DNA of 64,000 nucleotides from Trueperaceae bacterium (GTDB lineage Bacteria > Deinococcota > Deinococci > Deinococcales > Trueperaceae): NCBI GenBank assembly GCA_965213925.1, contig OZ243927.1:2880001-2944000 (forward strand), written 5' to 3'. Positions 33,695 to 42,741 of the stretch are shown here, piece after piece. Under the pieces are notes generated by a model that was not told the origin of the DNA, made no database searches, and saw only the letters and a list, made by a program, of their open reading frames with translations. A program made the position numbers and the translations under genes. Position 1 is the stretch's first letter. Every line of letters starts with the position of its first letter.

Positions 33695-34150
33695 TTACGC
33701 CGCTAACCTTTCCAAGCTCTGGGTTCCGAAATCGTTAGGACACTGATAGCCGAGACTGCTGTGCAGTCGCCAACTGTTGTAGTACATGTTGATAAATTCG
33801 CTTACGGCTGATCGAACCTTTTCTCTCGTCTCGAAATTGATCTGATAGACGAGTTCTTTAAGGTGGCGAAGAAGCTCTCGGTCCAGTCGAGCTGGTGGCT
33901 TTAGCTTCCGCAGGAACGAACGGTGTAAGCGTTGTCCAGGCACGCGCCGGTGCCAGTAAAACTGGGGCGCATCCCCTGAGCGGCTAGCTCGCGCCCATAG
34001 GCGTAGGAGGTGTACTGGCTACCCTTATCGCTGTGATGAATAAGACCCTTTTGGCAGTAACGCTGTTTCGTCGCCATGCGCAGCGCCTGAACGACGAGGT
34101 CGGTCTTCATGTTGTCCGCCACTGCGCAGCCGACGACCCGCTTGGAGAGA
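33695..34150 (-). mobile_element. IS3-family transposase C-terminal remnant
   Basis: IHHSDKGSQYTS, CLDNA..ESFFATLK, YNSWRLHSSLGY; interrupted by a 42-bp insertion. Confidence 0.85.
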
Positions 34151-34199
34151 AGTCTTTAACAGCTAGCGGGAGCGGTCCACGCGACGCGTAAGCCTTGCG

Positions 34200-34390
34200 A
34201 ATGCGTAGGGGTCTCGTTTCGCATTCTCAGCAAGAGGAGAAGGCAGATGCAGAGATTCTTTCACTTCGCTGGCGCTACGTTCAGAATGACAACAGCGGCG
34301 GCATGTCACCCTGAGCCTTTAGGCGTGAGGGTCTCGTCTTGCACTCTCGGCTAGTCAAGCACGGAATGACGAGATTCTTTCACTTCACTC
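34200..34390. repeat. Two tandem copies of a ~100-bp palindromic REP/MITE-like element
   Basis: GGGTCTCG...GAGATTCTTTCACTTC... units; homologous to an inverted copy at 46478-46581. Confidence 0.7.
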
Positions 34391-34595
34391 ATTGCTCATT
34401 CCTCATTGCTCATTGCTTTTTTTGCGAACTTCCTTACACCTCGTTTTACATGTGAAATTTGCAAGTTCTTTGTAAGCGTTCAGCGGCTAAACTCTTTTTT
34501 AGCAAGGGAGTAACACTCCCGCGCTACGAACTCTCACCGGAACAGCCGCTTTCATTCATATTCTTTATCGGATGTTCCCAGAAAAGGAGCGCACC

Positions 34596-34967
34596 ATGCG
34601 CAACAACAAGAACAAAGGCTTCACCCTCATCGAACTCCTCATCGTCATCGCCATCATCGGCATCTTAGCAGCGGTTCTCATCCCGAACTTGCTCTCGGCT
34701 CGCAGCCGCGCATACGACACGACTGCTCAGACTTGTGCTAAAGGTCTTGCAACGGCGGCTGAAATCTTTCAGATTGACAACAATACCTATGTTGGTTTTA
34801 CTGATACTTACGCGAAGGCGAACGGTGCCAACGCATGTAACGACGCTAACATTACTGTTGCTGTCGGTACACCCACCGTTGGCAATTACAGCATGACCTC
34901 TACACACGCCAACGGTAGCAAAACCTTTACAGTTACGCCTAGCGGTATCACTTCTGCTGCTAAGTAA
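34596..34967 (+). CDS. Type IV pilin (major pilin-like)
   Basis: Class III signal KG|FTLIELLIVIAIIGILAAVLIPNL, Cys pair, AAGGAG RBS. Confidence 0.93.
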   Translation: MRNNKNKGFTLIELLIVIAIIGILAAVLIPNLLSARSRAYDTTAQTCAKGLATAAEIFQIDNNTYVGFTDTYAKANGANACNDANITVAVGTPTVGNYSMTSTHANGSKTFTVTPSGITSAAK

Positions 34968-34985
34968 GCAGGCAAGATAATGCCC

Positions 34986-35022
34986 AAGAGAGCTGAAGCT
35001 AACTTCAGCTCTCTTTCATTTA
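34986..35022 (+). terminator. Intrinsic terminator between the two pilin genes
   Basis: AAGAGAGCTGAAG-ctaa-CTTCAGCTCTCTT followed by a T-rich tail. Confidence 0.7.
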
Positions 35023-35072
35023 TTCCTATTCCGAATGTCATGAAATGATTGAGAGAAAGGAGGGGGAAAAAG

Positions 35073-35453
35073 ATGCTTGAAAAGCGTACAGAAGGCTTCA
35101 CACTTATCGAGTTGCTTATAGTTATTGCAATTATCGGTATTCTTGCTGCCGTGATGATTCCTAATCTTTTAGCCGCTAGACAGAAAGCTGATGAAAGCGT
35201 CATTCAAGGTTATATACGTTTTGTCGTTTTAGGCGTAGAATCTAAGCGGGATTACGCAAGTTCAACGCTTCCCGACGCCTCTTTGTCTTGTATGCAATTA
35301 GCAGGAAAAGACCCCGAACCTGGTAGCGTTAAGCGTTGTAAGTACGAACCTAATGCGGCAGCCGAAACTTACACCATCACGGCTGAAAGTCCTTCGGGGA
35401 AAGTTTTTCAGTATCAGAGCGATGGCGATATTGTTTCAGTCGCAAGCTACTAA
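35073..35453 (+). CDS. Second type IV pilin
   Basis: EG|FTLIELLIVIAIIGILAAVMIPNL, Cys pair; more AT-rich codons than pilin 1. Confidence 0.92.
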   Translation: MLEKRTEGFTLIELLIVIAIIGILAAVMIPNLLAARQKADESVIQGYIRFVVLGVESKRDYASSTLPDASLSCMQLAGKDPEPGSVKRCKYEPNAAAETYTITAESPSGKVFQYQSDGDIVSVASY

Positions 35454-35538
35454 GTACATCATCACCCTGTCTTCATCCAGGCGGCTTCTTTAGCCGTCTT
35501 TTTCCTTTGCCCCACTTCACGTGCTGTATCATAGAACC

Positions 35539-35742
35539 ATGAGCATCTCTAAGCAAATGATAGAACCTGAATATATCGTTGATCATGAAGGGCGTAAGAC
35601 AAAAGTTGTCTTGCCGATTGAGGCGTATGAAGAACTGTTAGAAGACCTTCACGACTTAGCTGTCGCTTTTGAGAGGCGTGATGAACCTCTTCTTGCTTGG
35701 GAAGATGTGAGGCGTGACTTAGAGGAAGATGGCGCGTTATAA
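35539..35742 (+). CDS. Type II antitoxin (RelB/Phd-like)
   Basis: Small acidic protein, VVLPIEAYEELLEDL, overlaps the RelE start; leaderless TATCAT-6nt-ATG. Confidence 0.8.
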   Translation: MSISKQMIEPEYIVDHEGRKTKVVLPIEAYEELLEDLHDLAVAFERRDEPLLAWEDVRRDLEEDGAL

Positions 35743-35995
35743 GCTGCTTGCTCGTTCGTCCTTTCGGAAAGACCTCAAAAGGTTATCCAAAGACGTTGCC
35801 GAGCGGGTGTCGGCTAAAGTTGAGAGTCTAGCCGACGACCCTTTCCCAGCGGATAGCAAAAAGTTGCAGGGTCATAGAGGGCTTTACCGTGTGCGAGTGG
35901 GCGCGTATCGGGTTGTATATGAGGTAGATCAAGAGGTCAAAATTATCGCCCTAACGTATGCGCGTCACCGGAAAGATGTCTACCGAAACCTCTAA
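35729..35995 (+). CDS. RelE/ParE-family toxin
   Basis: Basic 88 aa, KKLQG..LYRVRVGAYRVVY..HRKDVY. Confidence 0.92.
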   Translation: MARYKLLARSSFRKDLKRLSKDVAERVSAKVESLADDPFPADSKKLQGHRGLYRVRVGAYRVVYEVDQEVKIIALTYARHRKDVYRNL

Positions 35996-36117
35996 ACTTA
36001 GCCTGTGAATCCAGGCGGCTTCTTTAGCCGTCTTTTTCTTTGGCTTTTAGCCGCTACGGGACACACTACCTTGAGCGTATGAGCACCTGTTTGACTTTGT
36101 AGGTGTATCATTGAACC

Positions 36118-36339
36118 ATGAACCTTCATGACGTTGAAAGCGTCGCTCTACGGCTAAACCCCGAAGACCGCGCCGCGCTCGCGCACCGTTTGCTCGTCAG
36201 CTTGGACGACTTGAGCCCGGAAGAGCATGAGCGGGTATGGCTGGAAGCGGCAGAGGAGCGTGTGCGGGAGCTTAGGGAGGGCACAGTACAAGGTGTCCCT
36301 ACAAGTGACGTTCTGAGCGATGTCCGAAGAAAACTTTAG
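36118..36339 (+). CDS. Putative addiction-module antitoxin
   Basis: LNPEDRAALAHRLLVSL...WLEAAEERV pattern, upstream of a ParE-like gene. Confidence 0.85.
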   Translation: MNLHDVESVALRLNPEDRAALAHRLLVSLDDLSPEEHERVWLEAAEERVRELREGTVQGVPTSDVLSDVRRKL

Positions 36340-36655
36340 TGCTTTTGGCAGCCTTTTTCACCCTGCGGCAAGGCCCTGACTACTTGACGCCATAGAGTAC
36401 TACCGGAACAGGTCGCCCCATTTGGCTTCGACATTTTACGAAGATATTGAGCGCTGTCTTGAAGAGCTACTTGAGTTTCCAGAACTGGCTCCCGTTAAGC
36501 ACCCCGCCGGGGTTCGGAGTCAGCCGTTACGCCGTTTTCCGTACAGTGTGCTTTATACGGTAGACCCCGATGTTTTATATATCGTGGCTGTTGCTCATCA
36601 GAAACGCCGCCCCAACTACTGGTTACGCCGCTTAGGGCTCGAGGCGGACTCGTAG
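36320..36655 (+). pseudogene. ParE/RelE-family toxin with an in-frame TGA at 36377-36379
   Basis: FHPAARP*LLDAIEYY...RRFPYSVLY...AVAHQKRRPNYW in one frame. Confidence 0.75.
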
Positions 36656-36795
36656 CATTGACATCCATCATCCTATTTTCATCCAGGCGGCTTCTTTAGC
36701 CGTTCTTTTTCTTTAGCCTTCAGCCGCCACGAGGCGTGCTATCCTAAGCGTATGAGCGCGTTTAAGCGAGCGGTAGAGCCTGAAATACGCTTGTT

Positions 36796-37179
36796 TCAGT
36801 CCAACGATAACTTTTTCCTTGCAAATGCTCTTAGTTTGGTAGCCTCGTTTTGAGCGCGTCTTGCGTCTTGTACGCTCACTTCGGGTAAATCGCCTGGATA
36901 GCGGCGAACGACGCCGAAAAGGGCGAGGAAACTAGCGGCTGTTACGGGGTCGCTGTCTGCTCGTAGCTCTGGTTCTAGTAGACTTAGTAGTCGCAACAGG
37001 TCGTGGGTACGGGGCGGCTCGATACTTTGTTCTAGTAGCGCCGCTTTGAGGTACTTTTCGGCGGCCTGGTGAAAGTCCCAAGTAGCGTTTCGGGGGTAGC
37101 GCGTAAGACCTAACTGGGCGTATTCATAATCTTCTTCAGCGTAGGCGGCCCAGCGTAGCGCCTCGCGCTTAGGCGGCAT
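36796..37179 (-). CDS. HEPN domain protein
   Basis: HQAAEKYLKA, PRTHDL, RYP motifs. Confidence 0.9.
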   Translation of the reverse strand: MPPKREALRWAAYAEEDYEYAQLGLTRYPRNATWDFHQAAEKYLKAALLEQSIEPPRTHDLLRLLSLLEPELRADSDPVTAASFLALFGVVRRYPGDLPEVSVQDARRAQNEATKLRAFARKKLSLD

Positions 37180-37486
37180 AGAGCAAAATACCCTCTTGCG
37201 CTGCGCGTCTTGCTAGCGGTGAGCTTCTTTGGAGCCAGTGGCTTTGGCGCATCGGAACGAGGTCTATAGCGCTTTGCCTAGGCCATAGCGAGCGCTCTGC
37301 ACAGGCAGCTAGAGAGGAGAGGTCGGCGTCGTCGGGAACGATGTACAGCAAATCTACATCGCTACTCTCGTTAGCTTCACCTCGAGCCAGAGAACCGAAC
37401 AGGATAACGGCGTATGCGCCCGTTGCCTGTCCTAAACGTTCGGCAGCGCGGCTAAGCTCTGCGGGAAGGCTCTCTTTAGCTAGCAT
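37169..37486 (-). CDS. Minimal nucleotidyltransferase (MNT) paired with HEPN
   Basis: LFGSLARG...SDVDL. Confidence 0.9.
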   Translation of the reverse strand: MLAKESLPAELSRAAERLGQATGAYAVILFGSLARGEANESSDVDLLYIVPDDADLSSLAACAERSLWPRQSAIDLVPMRQSHWLQRSSPLARRAAQEGILLYAA

Positions 37487-37723
37487 CTAAGTCCATATCT
37501 CCTGCAAATCGTCTTCGCTGTAGAGGGCGTCTTCATCTTCCATATCTCTCATGGCATTGGACAGCGAAAAAGAGGTCCAGTCTGGTCCATCTAGTTTACC
37601 TTCTGCTTTTGGTACGGTCTTTTGAAGTAAGAACTCCGCAAAGTGCTGCTCTTCGCGCTGCTGCTGTGCGTCTAGCTGGGGCAGTAGCTCAACTACGGCT
37701 TCGATGCTCGTTTTATCTTCCAT
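37487..37723 (-). CDS. DUF2281-like small acidic protein (orphan antitoxin-like)
   Basis: LPQL..QQREEQHFAEFLLQK pattern, acidic tail; leaderless TAAACT-6nt-ATG. Confidence 0.6.
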   Translation of the reverse strand: MEDKTSIEAVVELLPQLDAQQQREEQHFAEFLLQKTVPKAEGKLDGPDWTSFSLSNAMRDMEDEDALYSEDDLQEIWT

Positions 37724-37850
37724 AGTTACAGTTTACATCACCCTGTTACTCCAGGCGGCTTCTTTAGCCGCCTTTTTCTTTGGCTTTTAGCCGCTACTAG
37801 CCGTAACTGTTCTAAGCGTATGAGCACGTTTGAGTGAGTGGTAGACTCCT

Positions 37851-38192
37851 CTATTCCACCTCTTCAAGCATCGCCTCAACTTCGAGGCGCAACTCAGGAA
37901 GTTCTTTTTCCACTACGTCCCAGATAATCTCTAGGTCTAAACCGAAATACTGATGTGCAATGACGTTACGCAGCCCTACGATTTGACGCCAGGGAATTTC
38001 TGCGTGAGCGTCGCGGAGGTCTGTAGGGAGTTTCCCGGCAGCTTCACCGATGATGAGCAAATTAAAGGTTACAGCGTCGGCTCTTAGCGGGTCTGCGAGT
38101 AGCGTGTCGAGAGATTGATCTTTGGTGTAGGCTTCAATCTTGAGAATCGCGCCGAGAACATCGTCTAAGTAGAGCTTGACTTCACGCGACAC
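37851..38192 (-). CDS. HepT/DUF86 HEPN ribonuclease toxin
   Basis: IIGEA, IPWRQIVGLRNVIAHQYF (Rx4H); GTG start at 38192 (ORF open to 38204). Confidence 0.92.
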   Translation of the reverse strand: MSREVKLYLDDVLGAILKIEAYTKDQSLDTLLADPLRADAVTFNLLIIGEAAGKLPTDLRDAHAEIPWRQIVGLRNVIAHQYFGLDLEIIWDVVEKELPELRLEVEAMLEEVE

Positions 38193-38472
38193 GCCTTGCC
38201 TCACTGATTACCTTATCGCGTAGGAGCGGTTTTAGACCGTCTTTGGTGATGAGGTCAACGGGACGGCCGAAAAGGTCTTCTAAGAATAGCTTGAGCCCCA
38301 TGTAGTTGCGAAAGGTCTTAGGGTGCAGGTCAACGAGAAAGTCTAGGTCGCTCGTTTCTTCTGCTTCATTCCTAGCTGTTGAGCCAAAAACGGATAGCTG
38401 CACTACACCGAAGTCTTGTAAACGGGTCCGGTATTGCTCTAGTGTTGTGCTCACGCTCTGAAGTTGGTTCAT
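38182..38472 (-). CDS. MntA-like nucleotidyltransferase antitoxin
   Basis: VFGSTARNE...SDLDFLV, LEDLFGRPVDL. Confidence 0.92.
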   Translation of the reverse strand: MNQLQSVSTTLEQYRTRLQDFGVVQLSVFGSTARNEAEETSDLDFLVDLHPKTFRNYMGLKLFLEDLFGRPVDLITKDGLKPLLRDKVISEARRVA

Positions 38473-38571
38473 CCTGCTTCGCAGTGTACCTCATCCTGTT
38501 ACACCAGGCGGCTTCTTCAGCCGTCTTTTTCTTTGGCTTTCAGCCGCTACTAAGCGTGCTATCCTAAGCAT

Positions 38572-38787
38572 ATGAGCACGTTTGAGCGAATCACAGTAGA
38601 CCCTGAAGTGATGTTGGGTCAGGCTGTTATTAGAGGAACACGCTTGCCCGTCTATGTCATTGTTGAAGCTGTAGCTGAGGGAAATACCATTGATGAACTC
38701 GTGCAGGCCTATCCCTTTTTAGGCGCTGAAGATGTCAGGCAGGCGCTGCTATTTGCGGCGCATCTGAGCCACGGCAATATGGCGTGA
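38572..38787 (+). CDS. DUF433 antitoxin-like protein
   Basis: ITVDPEVMLGQAVIRGTR...YPFL..EDVRQAL; the ATG lies inside repeat copy 5. Confidence 0.9.
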   Translation: MSTFERITVDPEVMLGQAVIRGTRLPVYVIVEAVAEGNTIDELVQAYPFLGAEDVRQALLFAAHLSHGNMA

Positions 38788-39131
38788 CCTTTCTGGTTGA
38801 TGAGAATTTACCTTTTGAGTTAGTTCAACTAGCGCAAGGTAGAGGTTTAGACGCGCTTTGGGTTCGTAATGTCATGCCGGGTGCTAAAGACAGTCTCATT
38901 TTGAAGCGTTTGAGCGAACAGCAAGAGGTATTGGTAACGAGAGATATCGGCTTCGCGAATCTAGTCTTTGGGCAGATGGTCGTGGGCGTACCTTTAGTGG
39001 GCGCGGTACTTATTCGTGAGGAGAGGTTAGAGGTCATTCGTCAGGTTTGGCTAACCTTCTTGCTAAATATGCCTACTTTTCGGGGAATTGCGGTGCTTAC
39101 GGCTAAAGGAGTGCGCGTTCGTGAGCCATGA
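38784..39131 (+). CDS. DUF5615 PIN-like toxin
   Basis: FLVDENLP, GAKD, LVTRD motifs, coupled to DUF433. Confidence 0.88.
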   Translation: MTFLVDENLPFELVQLAQGRGLDALWVRNVMPGAKDSLILKRLSEQQEVLVTRDIGFANLVFGQMVVGVPLVGAVLIREERLEVIRQVWLTFLLNMPTFRGIAVLTAKGVRVREP

Positions 39132-39155
39132 TAATTCTATTGCTAAAAGGGGTCA

Positions 39156-39380
39156 ATGATGGCGTGTCCTGGAACGTGTGAACCCAAAATGATCCTCTTT
39201 CGCGGCAAGCAGAAGGGCGAAACGGTTATGATTGATGACGTGCCCGCTTTGGTTTGTCAGGTGTGCGGCGACATGGTTTTAGAACCTGATGTGGTGCGGC
39301 ACATCGAAGCACTGTTGCACTCTGAGGAAGAGCCAAGCAAGCAGTATCCTGTTTTTACGTTTGCGCAAAAAGCTGCTTAG
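39156..39380 (+). CDS. YgiT-type/MqsA-like zinc-finger protein (orphan)
   Basis: CPGTC...IDDVPALVCQVCG. Confidence 0.82.
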   Translation: MMACPGTCEPKMILFRGKQKGETVMIDDVPALVCQVCGDMVLEPDVVRHIEALLHSEEEPSKQYPVFTFAQKAA

Positions 39381-39469
39381 CGCCCCATCGTCCTGTGAAT
39401 TCCAGGCGGCTTCTTTAGCCGTCTTTTTCTTTGGCTTTTAGCCGCCACTAAGCGTGCTATCCTAAGCAC

Positions 39470-39703
39470 ATGAGCACGCCCAAGCGAATCGCGGTAGAGC
39501 CGGAATATATCACGGATCATGAGGGGCACAGAACGAAAGTCGTTTTGCCTATCGAAGCGTATGAAGCCTTGCTTAGAGCGGCGCAGCAGCCTAACAAAAC
39601 GCCGCAGAAGCGCACGTTCAGTTCGTTAGGCGCAGGCGAGGATGCCACTTTGCAGGGGGCGGAGACTCGAGACCTCATCGAGCGGGCTTGGCAGGAGCGT
39701 TGA
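39470..39703 (+). CDS. Antitoxin (VapB-like, chimeric N-terminus)
   Basis: Starts inside repeat copy 6; N-terminus shared with the 35539 antitoxin; C-terminus FSSLGAG; coupled to a PIN toxin. Confidence 0.8.
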   Translation: MSTPKRIAVEPEYITDHEGHRTKVVLPIEAYEALLRAAQQPNKTPQKRTFSSLGAGEDATLQGAETRDLIERAWQER

Positions 39704-40101
39704 GCCTGGTTTTAGATACGAGCGCTGTCCTCGCTTTCCTTAACCGTGCCGACGTAGACCATACACGTGTGCGAGAGGTACTTTTAGAGGAGCGCGAGTT
39801 GCTGGTTGTTCCTGTCGGCATTATGGCTGAGATTGGTTACTTGGTAGAGACGAGGCTGGGGCAGCGTGTTTTAAGCCTCTTTTTGCAAGATATTGCTGAA
39901 GGTCATTTCATGTTGGACTGTGGGCTCGAGGATATGTCGCGGGTACAAGCCCTCGTCGAGCGTTACGCGGACATGTCTTTAGGCTACGCCGACGCGGTTG
40001 TGATCGCTTGCACTGAACGCTCGGGGCTGAGAATTATCAGCTTAGATAGACGGCACCTTAATGTTGTCAACCGGGAGATTCAGTTCGAGCTATTGCCTTG
40101 A
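39700..40101 (+). CDS. VapC/PIN-domain toxin
   Basis: VLDTSA, AE, LGYADAVV, SLDRRH acidic PIN motifs. Confidence 0.9.
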   Translation: MSLVLDTSAVLAFLNRADVDHTRVREVLLEERELLVVPVGIMAEIGYLVETRLGQRVLSLFLQDIAEGHFMLDCGLEDMSRVQALVERYADMSLGYADAVVIACTERSGLRIISLDRRHLNVVNREIQFELLP

Positions 40102-40186
40102 GATTCGCTTATCTTCATCCGGGCGGCTTCTTTAGCCGCCTTTTTCCTCTGCTTTCAGCCGCTACCAGGCGTGCTATCCTAAGCGT

Positions 40187-40330
40187 CTGAGCACGCCCAA
40201 GCGAAGTGCGGTAGAGCCTGAATATATTACGGACCATAAAGGTCGCAAGACCAGGGTCGTTTTGCCTATCGAGGTGTTCGAGGAACTCCTCGAAGACCTG
40301 CTTGACCTCTCAGTTACAGCAGGAGATTTT
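40187..40330 (+). pseudogene. Antitoxin remnant (ATG changed to CTG, no toxin partner)
   Basis: LSTPKRSAVEPEYITDHKGRKTRVVLPIEVFEELLEDLLDL, homologous to the 35539 and 39470 proteins. Confidence 0.75.
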
Positions 40331-40514
40331 GGAGCGAGCACAAGAGGTCAAGGCGCGGTTGGAAAGAGGAGGGCTACAAGCTATTTCGGCTCAGAGCGTT
40401 TGGAACGGCTCGAGCAAAAACTCGCCGCGCTCTATAACTCGAGCCGTATTCCTCAATACGTTTTTTCTTCCTCCCTGACGCTAAGGTACAAAAGACAAAC
40501 TAAAAGGAGGAAGT

Positions 40515-41495
40515 ATGTTTAACACGAAGACAGACGCGAAACGGTCCTTGTCCCGCCGGAAGCTCCTCAAAGGATTAGGCGCAGGTGCCATCGGCGTAAG
40601 CCTCGGTCATTTGAGCGTCGTGCGCGCGCAAGATACGGGCGGCTCGCAGACGGGTGGCGCGGCTGGAACCTCTAGCCCCTCTCTCCCCCTCGCTCTGCAA
40701 CGCTTCGACCTCGGCGACACCCGAGTTACTGTGTTCCAGGAGGCTGTTCTGGAGTTGCAGCCGTCGATGCTGGGTGCAGGCGGCGGCGCGTCCGAAGGTG
40801 CGGTCAGCGACCTCTTGAGTCAGTACAACTTGCCCACCGACGTGGTCCGCGCGACAGCCAACGTGATGCTTCTGGATAGGGGCGGCGAGCGCATCCTCAT
40901 CGATACGGGCACGGGGCAGAACCTCGTCCCGACCTTGGAGGCTATCGGCGTGTCGCCTAGTGACATTAACTATGTAATTATCTCGCACTATCACGGCGAC
41001 CACATCTCGGGCATGTCAAGTGACGGCGCGTTGACTTTCCCGAACGCTATGCACTATATCTCGCAGGCGGAGTGGGATTTTTTGCAGGGCGCACCCGCAG
41101 ATAACGACGGCGCACAAACCGCGTTGGACAAACTACAACCCGCGGTAGACGCGGACCAGCTCTCCCGCTTCGGCGGTGGCGACGAGGTCGTGAGCGGCGT
41201 GCAGGCGGTAGAGGCGTTCGGTCACACGCCGGGGCACATGAATTTCCTCATTAGCTCAGGCGATGAAAGCGTTTTACACATCGCCGACACCGCTGTCCAC
41301 GCGCTCGTGTCGCCCCTACACCCCGACTGGGCGTTCGCCTTCGACGGCGATTCCGAGAGAGCCGCTGAGACACGCCGTGAGATTTTGAACCGAGCCTCGA
41401 GCGAAGGCACGCGCATCTTTGCCTACCACTTCGCCTTTCCCGGTCTGGGCTACATTGCGCAAGAGGGCGAGGAATTCAGGTTCACGCCCGCGTAA
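40515..41495 (+). CDS. Tat-exported metallo-beta-lactamase-fold hydrolase
   Basis: SRRKLLK signal; SHYHGDH, GHTPGH, YHF. Confidence 0.9.
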   Translation: MFNTKTDAKRSLSRRKLLKGLGAGAIGVSLGHLSVVRAQDTGGSQTGGAAGTSSPSLPLALQRFDLGDTRVTVFQEAVLELQPSMLGAGGGASEGAVSDLLSQYNLPTDVVRATANVMLLDRGGERILIDTGTGQNLVPTLEAIGVSPSDINYVIISHYHGDHISGMSSDGALTFPNAMHYISQAEWDFLQGAPADNDGAQTALDKLQPAVDADQLSRFGGGDEVVSGVQAVEAFGHTPGHMNFLISSGDESVLHIADTAVHALVSPLHPDWAFAFDGDSERAAETRREILNRASSEGTRIFAYHFAFPGLGYIAQEGEEFRFTPA

Positions 41496-41506
41496 GGGCG
41501 GTTATC

Positions 41507-41559
41507 AGTAGTCAGAATTCAGTAGTCAGCTCAAAAGACGCTAATGAATTCTGACTACT
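41507..41559. repeat. Intergenic inverted repeat (REP-like/terminator)
   Basis: AGTAGTCAGAATTCA / TGAATTCTGACTACT perfect 15-bp arms. Confidence 0.6.
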
Positions 41560-41631
41560 ATCTACTGACTTCTATTTTCTCAGTGAGCGTTTCACCAGAA
41601 CAATGGCGCTGCCCTGCTACGATAGCCTCTC

Positions 41632-42741
41632 ATGGACGCGCTACGGGCTTTTCTCTCCCTTTCGTTTACCCCTGGTTTGGGTCCACGCAAAATCAAGGTG
41701 CTCACGGAACACTTTGGCGGCGCAGTGGCAGTTTGGGAGGCGGAACCAGAGGCGCTGCGAGAGGTCGAGGGCGTTGGTCCTAAGCTGATTCAGTCACTTT
41801 TGAAGGCGAGAGACTCAGCAAAAATCAGCGAAGAGGTCGAGAAAGAGTTGGAGCGCGCGGAACGCTCGAACGTTGCGCTGCTGCACCTCGAGCACCCCGC
41901 CTACCCCGAACCTTTACGAAACGTCTACGACCCGCCCCCTCTCATCTATGTGCGCGGCACCTTGCCGAAGGTGCTCGCGCAGAATAAAGCCGTCGGTATT
42001 GTCGGCACGAGGAACGCGAGTCAATACGCGCTTCATCTTAGTTTGAACGTTAGCAAAGAGTTGGCCCTGGCAGGCGTCGCCGTCGTCTCCGGCTTAGCGC
42101 TCGGCGTGGACAGCGCCGCGCATAAGGGCGCAGTGCAGACTGAAAACGGGCAGACCGTCGCAGTGCTGGGTTCCGGCGTGGACGTCATCTATCCGCGTCA
42201 AAATCAGCGTTTAGCCGAAGAGATTTTAGAGGGTCACGGCGCAGTGGTGAGCGAATACCGAATCGGCAGCGGTCCGCGTGCCACGAACTTTCCGGCGAGA
42301 AATAGAATTATCAATGGACTTTCAAAAGGTGTTTTGGTTGTAGAGGGCGGGCTTAAATCGGGCGCACTCATTACAGCAGAGTTTGCGCTCGAGGAAGGGC
42401 GCTCGGTTTTCGCCATACCCGGCAGAGTTGGCGACAGTAAAGCCGAGGGAACTTTGGCGCTCCTCAAACAAGGCGCAGTGATGGTGCAGAGCGCCGCCGA
42501 CCTCTTACGAGAGTTCGGCTGGCGCGAAGCGGGTGCGAAAAACGCTGTTTCGCTGACCTCTTTAGAGGAGCCGGGGCGCAGCCTCGTTCAAACGATTCAA
42601 GAGCGCGGTTCTCCCCTACTCGATGATCTAATAAGCGCAACGGGTAAAACGACCGCCGACCTCTTGCCGACGCTGATGCTTTTAGAACTCCAAGGCGTCG
42701 TGAAGCAGCTTCCTGGCGGCAGGTACATCAGCTTGATTTGA
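41632..42741 (+). CDS. dprA: DNA-processing protein DprA
   Basis: DPPP, IVGTR, VSGLALGVD, FPARNRII, SGALITA, C-terminal LELQG. Confidence 0.95.
   Translation: MDALRAFLSLSFTPGLGPRKIKVLTEHFGGAVAVWEAEPEALREVEGVGPKLIQSLLKARDSAKISEEVEKELERAERSNVALLHLEHPAYPEPLRNVYDPPPLIYVRGTLPKVLAQNKAVGIVGTRNASQYALHLSLNVSKELALAGVAVVSGLALGVDSAAHKGAVQTENGQTVAVLGSGVDVIYPRQNQRLAEEILEGHGAVVSEYRIGSGPRATNFPARNRIINGLSKGVLVVEGGLKSGALITAEFALEEGRSVFAIPGRVGDSKAEGTLALLKQGAVMVQSAADLLREFGWREAGAKNAVSLTSLEEPGRSLVQTIQERGSPLLDDLISATGKTTADLLPTLMLLELQGVVKQLPGGRYISLI

Follow-up and report, generated by a model that had tools for sequence, protein, structure and literature searches.

A toxin-antitoxin cassette array behind pilA4 in Trueperaceae whose linkers may be copies of its own insertion target

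How do six different toxin-antitoxin (TA) modules come to stand in a row behind one pilin gene, each set apart from the next by a copy of the same sequence? The question is raised by a stretch of the chromosome of a Trueperaceae bacterium (assembly GCA_965213925.1, contig OZ243927.1, positions 2,880,001 to 2,944,000; the whole 64,000 nucleotides are called the window here), in which six modules lie between pilA4 and a pair of genes encoding a metallo-beta-lactamase-fold (MBL) protein and DprA, set apart by seven same-orientation copies of a repeat of about 125 nt, named U. A first-pass annotation had described this region as integron-like and had taken it for an undescribed kind of platform for the capture of TA cassettes. 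The observation itself, a seven-copy repeat array with six TA modules, is confirmed, and the interpretation is partly supported. On balance, we lean towards a cassette array that does without a recombinase of its own and is shaped by homology-driven duplication-insertion, deletion and occasional illegitimate replacement, its linkers being duplicated targets and TA addiction favouring retention of the inserts.

A repeat search of 34500-41500 returned one family with seven direct copies, starting at 35460, 35994, 36666, 37734, 38487, 39385 and 40102, and reproduced exactly the seven annotated cores, from 35476 to 40118, with their spacings of 534, 672, 1068, 753, 898 and 717 bp. Six of the seven copies are at least 90 nt long, and their alignment has 45 invariant columns, with a mean column identity of 72% over 169 columns, unique flanks included. 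The annotated core of some 28 nt is thus real, but it is only part of a unit of about 125 nt. When this 28-nt core was searched on both strands of the 4,745,936-base genome, allowing up to 5 mismatches, there were 7 sites, all 7 in the array. Since the genome-wide search gives array sites only, U is far beyond chance and locus-specific, and it is not a REP element or terminator scattered over the genome. Scans of public contigs for the repeat gave nothing related, with three single matches among genome contigs, all in unrelated organisms, and two chance matches within coding DNA among metagenome contigs; Rfam, at E values up to 1, contained no relevant family.

The anatomy of U suggests what the repeat may do. 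From 5' to 3' it consists of a left arm (CATCAYCCTGT...), a terminator-like hairpin, a second hairpin, a stretch with a -10 box and an ATG, and the start of a RelB-like antitoxin gene. The first hairpin, AGGCGGCT-TCTTT-AGCCGYCT followed by TTTTTC, was called terminator-like by a consensus scan in all seven copies (a stem of 8 or 7 bp, a 5-nt loop and a T-run), and the second is the small GGCTTTYAGCC. The stretch GCGTGCTATCCTAAGCRTATGAGCACGC holds a TGn-extended -10 box, TATCCT, 6 nt 5' of the ATG, and in the fold both are enclosed by a 7-bp inverted repeat, GCGTGCT-N14-AGCACGC. No -35 was called in U by the scan, and the promoter is a predicted one. At its 3' end the unit runs into a RelB-like antitoxin gene (MST.KRIAVEPE...), of which it contains the first 3-15 codons, at most about 45 nt. 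Every U retains ATGAGCAC together with up to 45 nt of RelB-like coding sequence, even ahead of unrelated or opposite-strand cassettes (U3 and U4), and because every copy keeps at least ATGAGCAC, the palindrome stays whole. Each U may be regarded as a putative insulator, which would end the upstream unit and start the next one.

The short distance between the -10 box and the ATG is not peculiar to U. Of 3195 long open reading frames (ORFs) in this genome, 457 have a TANNNT motif whose end lies 5-7 nt from the first start codon. The peak is at 6 nt (229 of 3195, compared with about 40 at background spacings), and the signal for leaderless-type starts is strong across the genome. The 6-nt spacing in U is the norm of this genome and fits leaderless mRNAs, which are common in Deinococcus deserti, where they are reported for 60% of transcripts (PMC4007540).

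All seven copies lie on the plus strand. U1 (35458..35560) starts 5 nt after the pilA4 stop codon, and its hairpin (35479-35499, with a T-run) therefore serves as the predicted pilA4 terminator. Its promoter half is a variant (TGTATCAT), with TATCAT at 35527-35532, 6 nt before the ATG at 35539, and this variant is common to two congeners at the same position (genomes G001 and G002, which together with the window genome, G000, make up genus g1). U2 (35997..36095) has a hairpin at 36013-36033, the second hairpin, a degenerate -10 and ATGAGCAC at 36079, and its homology to the other copies stops about 9 nt past the ATG. U3 (36666..36784) has its hairpin at 36686-36704, the -10 TATCCT, an ATG at 36752 and vestigial RelB-like codons as far as ..GCCTGAA, and U4 (37734..37846) has its hairpin at 37753-37773, an ATG at 37820 and vestigial codons as far as GGTAGAC. 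U5 (38487..38607) carries a hairpin at 38506-38526, and its ATG (38572) with the first 12 codons or so forms the start of a DUF433 gene. The fullest copy is U6 (39371..39505), with a left arm from 39371, a hairpin at 39404-39424, the second hairpin, the palindrome around the -10 TATCCT and a predicted leaderless ATG at 39470. The last, U7 (40102..40222), has its hairpin at 40121-40141 and a CTG at the position of the start codon (40187).

As these descriptions indicate, the right limit of homology varies: it falls after ATGAGCACC in U2, GGTAGAC in U4 and ..CCTGAA in U3 and U5, and at further points in G001. On the left side, the stop codons of the upstream genes lie between 8 and about 30 nt before the hairpin. 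Such variation in the edges among copies of U speaks against a precise, site-specific mode of recombination. A short direct motif found at both edges of U, CCTG..GAAT, was considered as a crossover site and rejected, since only 3 of 8 non-RelB junctions end there.

Comparison with relatives showed that the array varies, and that it does so mostly at U. Among 41 related genomes searched with U, matches were found in G000 and G001 only, and a diverged version of the array in G002 was found via its pilins; the same two pilin genes precede the array in all three. In G001, six U copies, two of them with degenerate hairpins, follow directly behind the pilins and separate an 87-aa minus-strand ORF without Pfam match, HicB/HicA, PIN with DUF2281 (minus strand), RelB/RelE, DUF4258 with a zinc-finger gene, and a terminal scar. 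The RelB/RelE cassette is the first in G000 and the fourth in G001 (81% nucleotide identity). For the zinc-finger gene and the U behind it, identity between the two genomes is 90%; in G001 this gene follows the DUF4258 toxin gene. G002 has three U copies, all with a changed hairpin that still pairs (GGCGGC-TCATC-GCCGCC, with a different 3' arm and loop). Its RelB-like gene has a 5' part like relB1 of the window and a 3' part like relB6, and is accompanied by a 70-nt VapC remnant fused to a DUF4258 cassette, then a PemK and DUF2281 cassette and the remnant of a DUF433 start. Identity of the U cores is 83.5% within G000, 81.3% within G001 and 81.6% between both, and within-genome homogenisation of U was not seen in this comparison.

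The outer DNA on both sides of pilins and array differs among the three congeners. The adjacency of dprA was considered as a part of the system and rejected, since both congeners have their MBL and dprA orthologues at other places. The G001 array is bounded on its far side by genes for tRNA-Val and tRNA-Cys, beyond which an S24-peptidase repressor gene and a Cro-like HTH gene probably mark a prophage or integrated element (L011 8664-8884, 9249-10263).

Public metagenome runs of two other studies, examined as assembled contigs, contain further arrangements. Some contigs join 37736/37746 to 39401/39405 (U4 to U6), others 35998 to 38504 (the end of the RelE gene to U5) or 38592 back to 36770 (U5 to the HEPN cassette, which is a different order), and one loose contig end has U followed by a HicB cassette, the arrangement known from G001. 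All these joints fall within U; the contigs, at less than 95% likeness, are support and not proof. Two further runs, X1 and X2, which probably stem from the source sample of the window, also hold a G001-like organism, so that joints in these two are differences between organisms and not rearrangements within a culture. The expectation that relatives would differ in cassette content and order was thus borne out by G001, G002 and the public contigs, with most breakpoints inside the repeat. That breakpoints fall exactly at repeats is too strict, as two rearrangements lie outside U: the 5' junction of the zinc-finger (YgiT) gene in the window and the VapC::DUF4258 fusion in G002. Imprecise edges and joints outside U are what homologous exchange with occasional illegitimate joining predicts, and a fixed crossover site does not predict them.

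The same design occurs in other genera. A search of 61 genomes of the family returned PilA4 homologues from 42, and at least three same-orientation repeats were flagged in 10 of 32 pilin-adjacent sequences, seven of which are TA arrays: G000, G001 and G002 in g1, G005 and G055 in g4, and G064 and G018 in g17. Two flagged sequences were set aside because they are not cassette arrays, the repeats of L046 being N-termini of pilin paralogues and those of L050 Wzy_C paralogues. L052, a short contig with pilins, ParE and IS110, was not counted among the seven, and L037 and L057 were left out as too short. The linkers of g17 and g4 are sequences other than U, but each starts with a terminator-like hairpin and T-run close behind the pilin gene, and they are confined to the pilin locus in 4 of 4 genomes tested.

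Linker L2 of G018 duplicates the region upstream of purA along with that gene's first 12 codons. It agrees with purA at 33 of 34 residues, and the DNA is 98% identical over 103 nt; the intact purA stands after the last linker. Because this linker holds the purA start, linkers appear to be copies of what natively lies between pilA4 and the gene behind it, with the start of that gene included, and hence duplicates of the insertion target. The RelB-like start in U would follow the same logic as the purA start in L2.

Cassettes, as distinct from linkers, are partly common to the genera. G005 has homologues of cassettes of g1 (MNT/HEPN, MntA/HepT and HicAB) with 72-74% nucleotide identity in the coding parts only; for the MntA/HepT cassette of the window, the fourth, the value is 72%. 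Not all genes of the g17 arrays belong to TA modules, as DUF559 and a gene for a 483-aa protein without assigned function occur there too. Units of the CTCGAGCCCC type fill spacers in G005 and G002. A 77-nt fragment of G005 (L031 1619-1695), right after the stop codon of a pilin-like gene, is a deletion scar within the array: it matches the 3' end of that island's HepT gene with 78% identity.

The gene content annotated for each interval of the window was confirmed by Pfam. The array holds ParE_toxin, PIN, HEPN, HepT-like, NTP_transf_2, RelB-like, Unstab_antitox and DUF433/DUF5615 families, in adjacent small genes that match known toxin and antitoxin families of type II modules; their toxin and antitoxin roles are predicted. 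Cassette 1 (35539..35995, plus strand) consists of a RelB-like antitoxin gene at 35539-35742, for which we place the start at ATG 35539 whereas the ORF list has GTG 35521, and a ParE/RelE-type toxin gene at 35729-35995. Cassette 2 (36118..36655, plus strand) has an Unstab_antitox antitoxin gene (36118-36339) with its own predicted U1-like promoter stretch at 36104-36121, and a ParE gene (36320-36655). Pfam and the translations bear out the annotated pairing of addiction antitoxin and ParE, but the ParE gene is broken: its reading frame runs through MSEENFSAFGSLFHPAARP into an in-frame TGA (36377-36379), behind which what is left of the ParE domain follows without a frame change. The toxin is probably inactivated, or made only in a truncated form from TTG 36422; contigs of relatives have small indels near 36372-36379.

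Cassettes 3 and 4 lie on the minus strand. Cassette 3 (36796..37723) comprises HEPN (36796-37179), the nucleotidyltransferase MNT (37169-37486) and a DUF2281-like antitoxin gene (37487-37723), whose Pfam match is weak (E 0.006). As the partner of DUF2281 is PIN in G001 and PemK/MazF in G002, and the gene stands here beside a complete MNT/HEPN pair, it is probably an orphan antitoxin gene. Cassette 4 (37851..38472) consists of HepT (37851-38204; Pfam HepT-like, E 6e-28) and an MntA-like nucleotidyltransferase (38182-38472; NTP_transf_2, E 1e-14). On the plus strand again, cassette 5 (38572..39380) has DUF433 (38572-38787), a DUF5615 PIN-like gene (38784-39131) and a zinc-finger gene (39156-39380) with a weak YokU/YgiT-like match (Pfam E 0.004). 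The latter is probably another orphan antitoxin gene, since its partner is the DUF4258 toxin in G001 and G002 and here it follows DUF433/DUF5615.

Cassette 6 (39470..40101, plus strand) combines a RelB-like antitoxin gene with a VapC-type C-terminus (39470-39703), as seen in the RelB-like alignment, and a PIN/VapC toxin gene (39688-40101). After U7 comes the decayed 5' part of a RelE-type RelB-like antitoxin gene (40187..40330, plus strand), recognised by translation and by alignment with the G001 relB; it begins with CTG for ATG and has no toxin gene behind it, so that the array ends truncated, a feature that was missing from the first-pass annotation. In the alignment the RelB-like genes are mosaics: their 5' part is common to all, whereas the 3' part is of one or the other of two types. 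One N-terminal part is thus combined with different C-terminal parts and toxins, RelE or VapC for RelB-like antitoxins and PIN, PemK or no toxin for DUF2281-like ones. Such modular antitoxins may offer extra internal homology for the swapping of toxin modules.

The array is preceded by two plus-strand pilin genes. The first (34572..34967; Pfam N_methyl, E 4e-11) encodes a type IV pilin and is followed by its own strong terminator-like hairpin at 34986-35015, and the second (35049..35453; Pfam PilA4, E 5e-18, and N_methyl) is the PilA4-type gene that forms the conserved left anchor. To the right, also on the plus strand, Pfam identifies the MBL-fold protein (40515-41495) and DprA (41632-42741). 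Over its first 300 nt or so, the pilin region has 92% identity with G001 and 84% with G002, while for the PilA4 proteins the values are only 51% (G001) and 71% (G002). A conserved 5' end with a fast-changing pilin body is typical of diversifying pilins. The pilin and array region (34000-42000) has a G+C content of 52%, compared with 58.4% for the chromosome. Just 5' of the pilins (about 34160-34350) there is a dispersed repeat of some 85-130 nt with dozens of copies across G001 and G002, a genome-wide family, unlike U. Two fragments of IS3-family transposase genes (rve domains) lie directly 5' of the pilin genes, at 33695-34119, and may be a cause of the lost synteny on the left flank.

We can now outline how an array of this kind could be built. 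A RelB-like antitoxin gene would originally have followed pilA4, and U would be a copy of this local insertion target, comprising the hairpin that terminates pilA4, a promoter of the leaderless type whose palindrome resembles an operator, and the RelB-like start. Circular or terminally redundant DNA carrying one U and a TA module could recombine with a resident U and give U-cassette-U; the donor might have left another array by excision, or have entered the cell by natural transformation and become circular through annealing. Later deletion, reordering and swapping of toxin modules would be mediated by U and by the shared N-terminal coding part of the RelB-like antitoxins, and occasional illegitimate joins would replace cassette content. 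The proposal of the first-pass annotation that each acquisition duplicates the repeat fits the anatomy, given the vestigial gene start in every unit and the first 12 codons of purA in a linker of another genus. The pathway of recombination, the part played by natural transformation, the promoter, operator and terminator activities and the addiction ratchet are, in this outline, what we infer.

In D. radiodurans (PMC4627823), direct repeats 1.5-10.5 kb apart recombine by single-strand annealing at about 6.5e-4, also when RecA is missing, and as few as 1-3 mismatches cut repeat recombination 5- to 19-fold. The present core identity of 83% would stabilise an old array. Addictive TA inserts would persist because, once a cassette had popped out between its two repeats, the toxin, as the more stable partner, would be set free; inserts that are not addictive should soon disappear from between such repeats, whereas TA modules would resist loss.

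Several points weigh against this explanation. The variants come from assembled contigs, among which there is no excised circle, junction read or within-culture variant, and contigs across repeats at less than 95% likeness can mislead. As the U cores are about 83% identical in G000 and mismatches lower recombination, exchange at the present day may be rare. The first joining of a foreign TA pair to a copy of U is left unexplained by the model. The promoter half of U1 differs from that of the internal copies, which are therefore not simple duplicates of today's U1. Identities of U are equal within and between G000 and G001, so that most duplications predate the split of these genomes or are held by selection. 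The non-TA genes in the g17 arrays weaken the addiction ratchet, and such arrays occur in only 7 genomes of 3 genera among the 32 pilin-adjacent sequences screened. Finally, the activities of U as promoter, operator and terminator are predictions.

A bolder form of the same idea would be a working capture platform throughout the family, in which DNA entering via the adjacent pilus is stacked behind pilA4 by target duplication, held by a TA ratchet and placed under one RelB-like repressor through the promoter/operator that the linkers have in common. This we put forward tentatively and consider rather doubtful.

Among the alternatives, the one that survives best needs no acquisition at U at all. 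According to it, a RelB-type TA operon behind pilA4 was tandemly duplicated and its coding parts were replaced piecemeal, U being kept as a shared regulatory region (a terminator and a promoter/operator bound by a RelB-like repressor); the repeats would have no role in acquisition, and rearrangements there would be incidental. The 7-bp palindrome around the -10 and start codon, whole in every copy, is what such a region would show, and the 81.6% identity of U cores between G000 and G001, as high as within genomes while nearby intergenic DNA is unalignable, fits selection. The varying homology edges and the homologous cassettes found without U in another genus, at 72-74% identity, agree with it as well. 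Yet at least eight independent and neatly bounded replacements of coding sequence would be needed, and opposite-strand cassettes, which are unable to use the U promoter, are still flanked by U. It also leaves unaccounted for the strain differences that fall at U and the purA fragment, no TA regulator, in the linkers of another genus. We regard this passive origin as unlikely.

Less probable still is site-specific capture by a functional analogue of an integron, with a recombinase encoded elsewhere acting on a site in U, for example its hairpins. The copies are same-orientation and locus-specific and flank cassettes of either orientation, and the first is a distinct variant, reminiscent of attI. 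In sedentary chromosomal integrons attC sites are species-specific, to which the occurrence of a linker of its own in each genus may be compared. There are also ten tyrosine recombinases in the G000 genome, the nearest in an integrase/primase element about 27 kb upstream of the array. No recombinase gene, however, is linked to the array in G000, G001 or G002, whose shared flanks are the pilins, and the pilins are adjoined by IS3 fragments only. The left and right limits of homology differ by copy, two G001 copies have degenerate hairpins, and vestigial gene starts in linkers are predicted by homologous duplication-insertion and not by crossover at a short core site. The 28-bp XerC/XerD sites in alternating orientation were not seen in U by eye, no search with a dif model having been made, and all copies are direct. 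We thus found no evidence for dedicated capture machinery, and the variable homology edges speak against that part of the earlier interpretation.

The element just mentioned is a feature of the window in its own right. Between 8038 and 13024, the genes for a tyrosine integrase, a primase-like protein with a CHC2 zinc finger, an AAA_25 ATPase and an HTH protein of DDE-transposase type give the impression of a small integrated element, at a distance of some 22-27 kb from the array.

That U might be a small non-autonomous mobile element (MITE-, REP- or BIME-like, or an IS200/IS605-type hairpin), inserted between TA modules that were already there, is an idea largely refuted by the genome-wide search, and we give it very little credence. 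Hairpins are present in U, and other dispersed repeats exist (the family at 34160-34350 in G001 and G002, and the spacer units of G005 and G002), but seven of seven copies lie at one locus in a single orientation, with none elsewhere in 4.75 Mb, and they have neither terminal inverted repeats nor target duplications, while they do hold fragments of gene starts. No Y1 transposase (PF01797) was found in G000 or G002; G001 has one match and G005 three.

The first-pass annotation had denied the repeats attC ends and an adjacent intI, and both statements hold. Pairs of attC core sites (RYYYAAC...GTTRRRY, 50-140 nt apart) were found at none of the seven repeats; one such pair in 35400-40400 lies inside a gene (39589-39705), against 0.77 +/- 1.5 in shuffled sequence. 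DNA folds of three copies on both strands formed no long imperfect hairpin with extrahelical bases, only short local hairpins (z -0.13 to -2.65), and the integron integrase model TIGR02249 gave at best 61.5 bits, against a cut-off of 265, so that none of the three genomes G000, G001 and G002 passes. An attC cluster that has lost its integrase (CALIN), suggested by a layout with TA modules as in Vibrio chromosomal integrons, is therefore highly improbable, as no core-site pairs or attC fold were found at the repeats and no IntI in the three genomes, and the cassettes have predicted promoters of their own.

If the preferred explanation, homology-driven duplication of the insertion target, is true, cassette arrays need no integrase: a copied terminator-promoter segment would provide portable homology, an insulator and an expression signal at once. 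It would give a reason for arrays almost exclusively of TA modules, addictive inserts resisting pop-out between flanking repeats, and it would extend a principle of phage genomes, that of the PeSL cassettes discussed below, to bacterial chromosomes. Should the family-wide platform also be true, it would be a natural counterpart of the integron without integrase that writes its own linkers. With its position behind pilA4, the locus makes it possible to test whether natural competence is tied to the build-up of TA and defence genes, and it offers a simple natural design for stacking insulated expression units. With one design and different linkers in three genera, it constitutes a comparative system and not a single curiosity. 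No account of a TA array anchored at a pilin gene, with linkers derived from the target, turned up in the open-access literature searched.

Four known systems invite comparison. Like defence and TA islands and integration hotspots, a general concept reportedly treated by Makarova et al. in 2009, the locus gathers type II TA and HEPN/MNT modules at a variable chromosomal spot; ordinary islands, unlike it, are without a regular, locus-specific linker between every module. Duplication insertion of the Campbell type, through a single homologous segment, is a laboratory procedure and a source of instability. It likewise leaves an insert flanked by direct copies of the target, truncated gene ends included, but it is not known as a natural stacking site, used repeatedly and persisting across genera. 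In the work on direct-repeat deletion in Deinococcus (PMC4627823), repeats recombine often and divergence lowers the frequency.

The closest structural look-alike is the sedentary chromosomal integron, exemplified by the Vibrio superintegron, in having gene-sized cassettes at one locus, same-orientation and lineage-specific repeats of about 120 nt, TA cassettes in either orientation and a content that varies between relatives. The Vibrio superintegron is a sedentary chromosomal integron with homogeneous attC repeats and TA cassettes. The array of the window departs from it in three defining features, as no IntI, no attC core sites at the repeats and no attC-type fold were found; furthermore, its repeat edges are imprecise, each cassette has its own predicted promoter, and the repeat is itself a predicted terminator/promoter.

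The closest mechanistic precedent is found in the promoter-early stem-loop (PeSL) cassettes of T4-type phages. In these (Arbiol et al. 2010, PMC2839356), repeated units of promoter and terminator stem-loop shuffle modules by recombination and release mini-circles. As there, short repeated units of promoter and terminator stem-loop (both predicted here) stand between small non-essential genes, and relatives differ by insertion, deletion and replacement at the units, here in the arrays of the three congeners and in public contigs, probably through homologous exchange without a dedicated recombinase. The differences are those of setting and order: PeSLs are scattered over hyperplastic regions of phage genomes and small circles are known for them, whereas the present array, seen in assembled sequence, occupies one place in the chromosome, with pilA4 as its anchor and TA modules as its load. 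In its units the terminator precedes the promoter and vestigial gene starts are included, and each genus has a linker of its own. Because this precedent is so close, to speak of an undescribed kind of platform, as the first-pass annotation did, is too strong.

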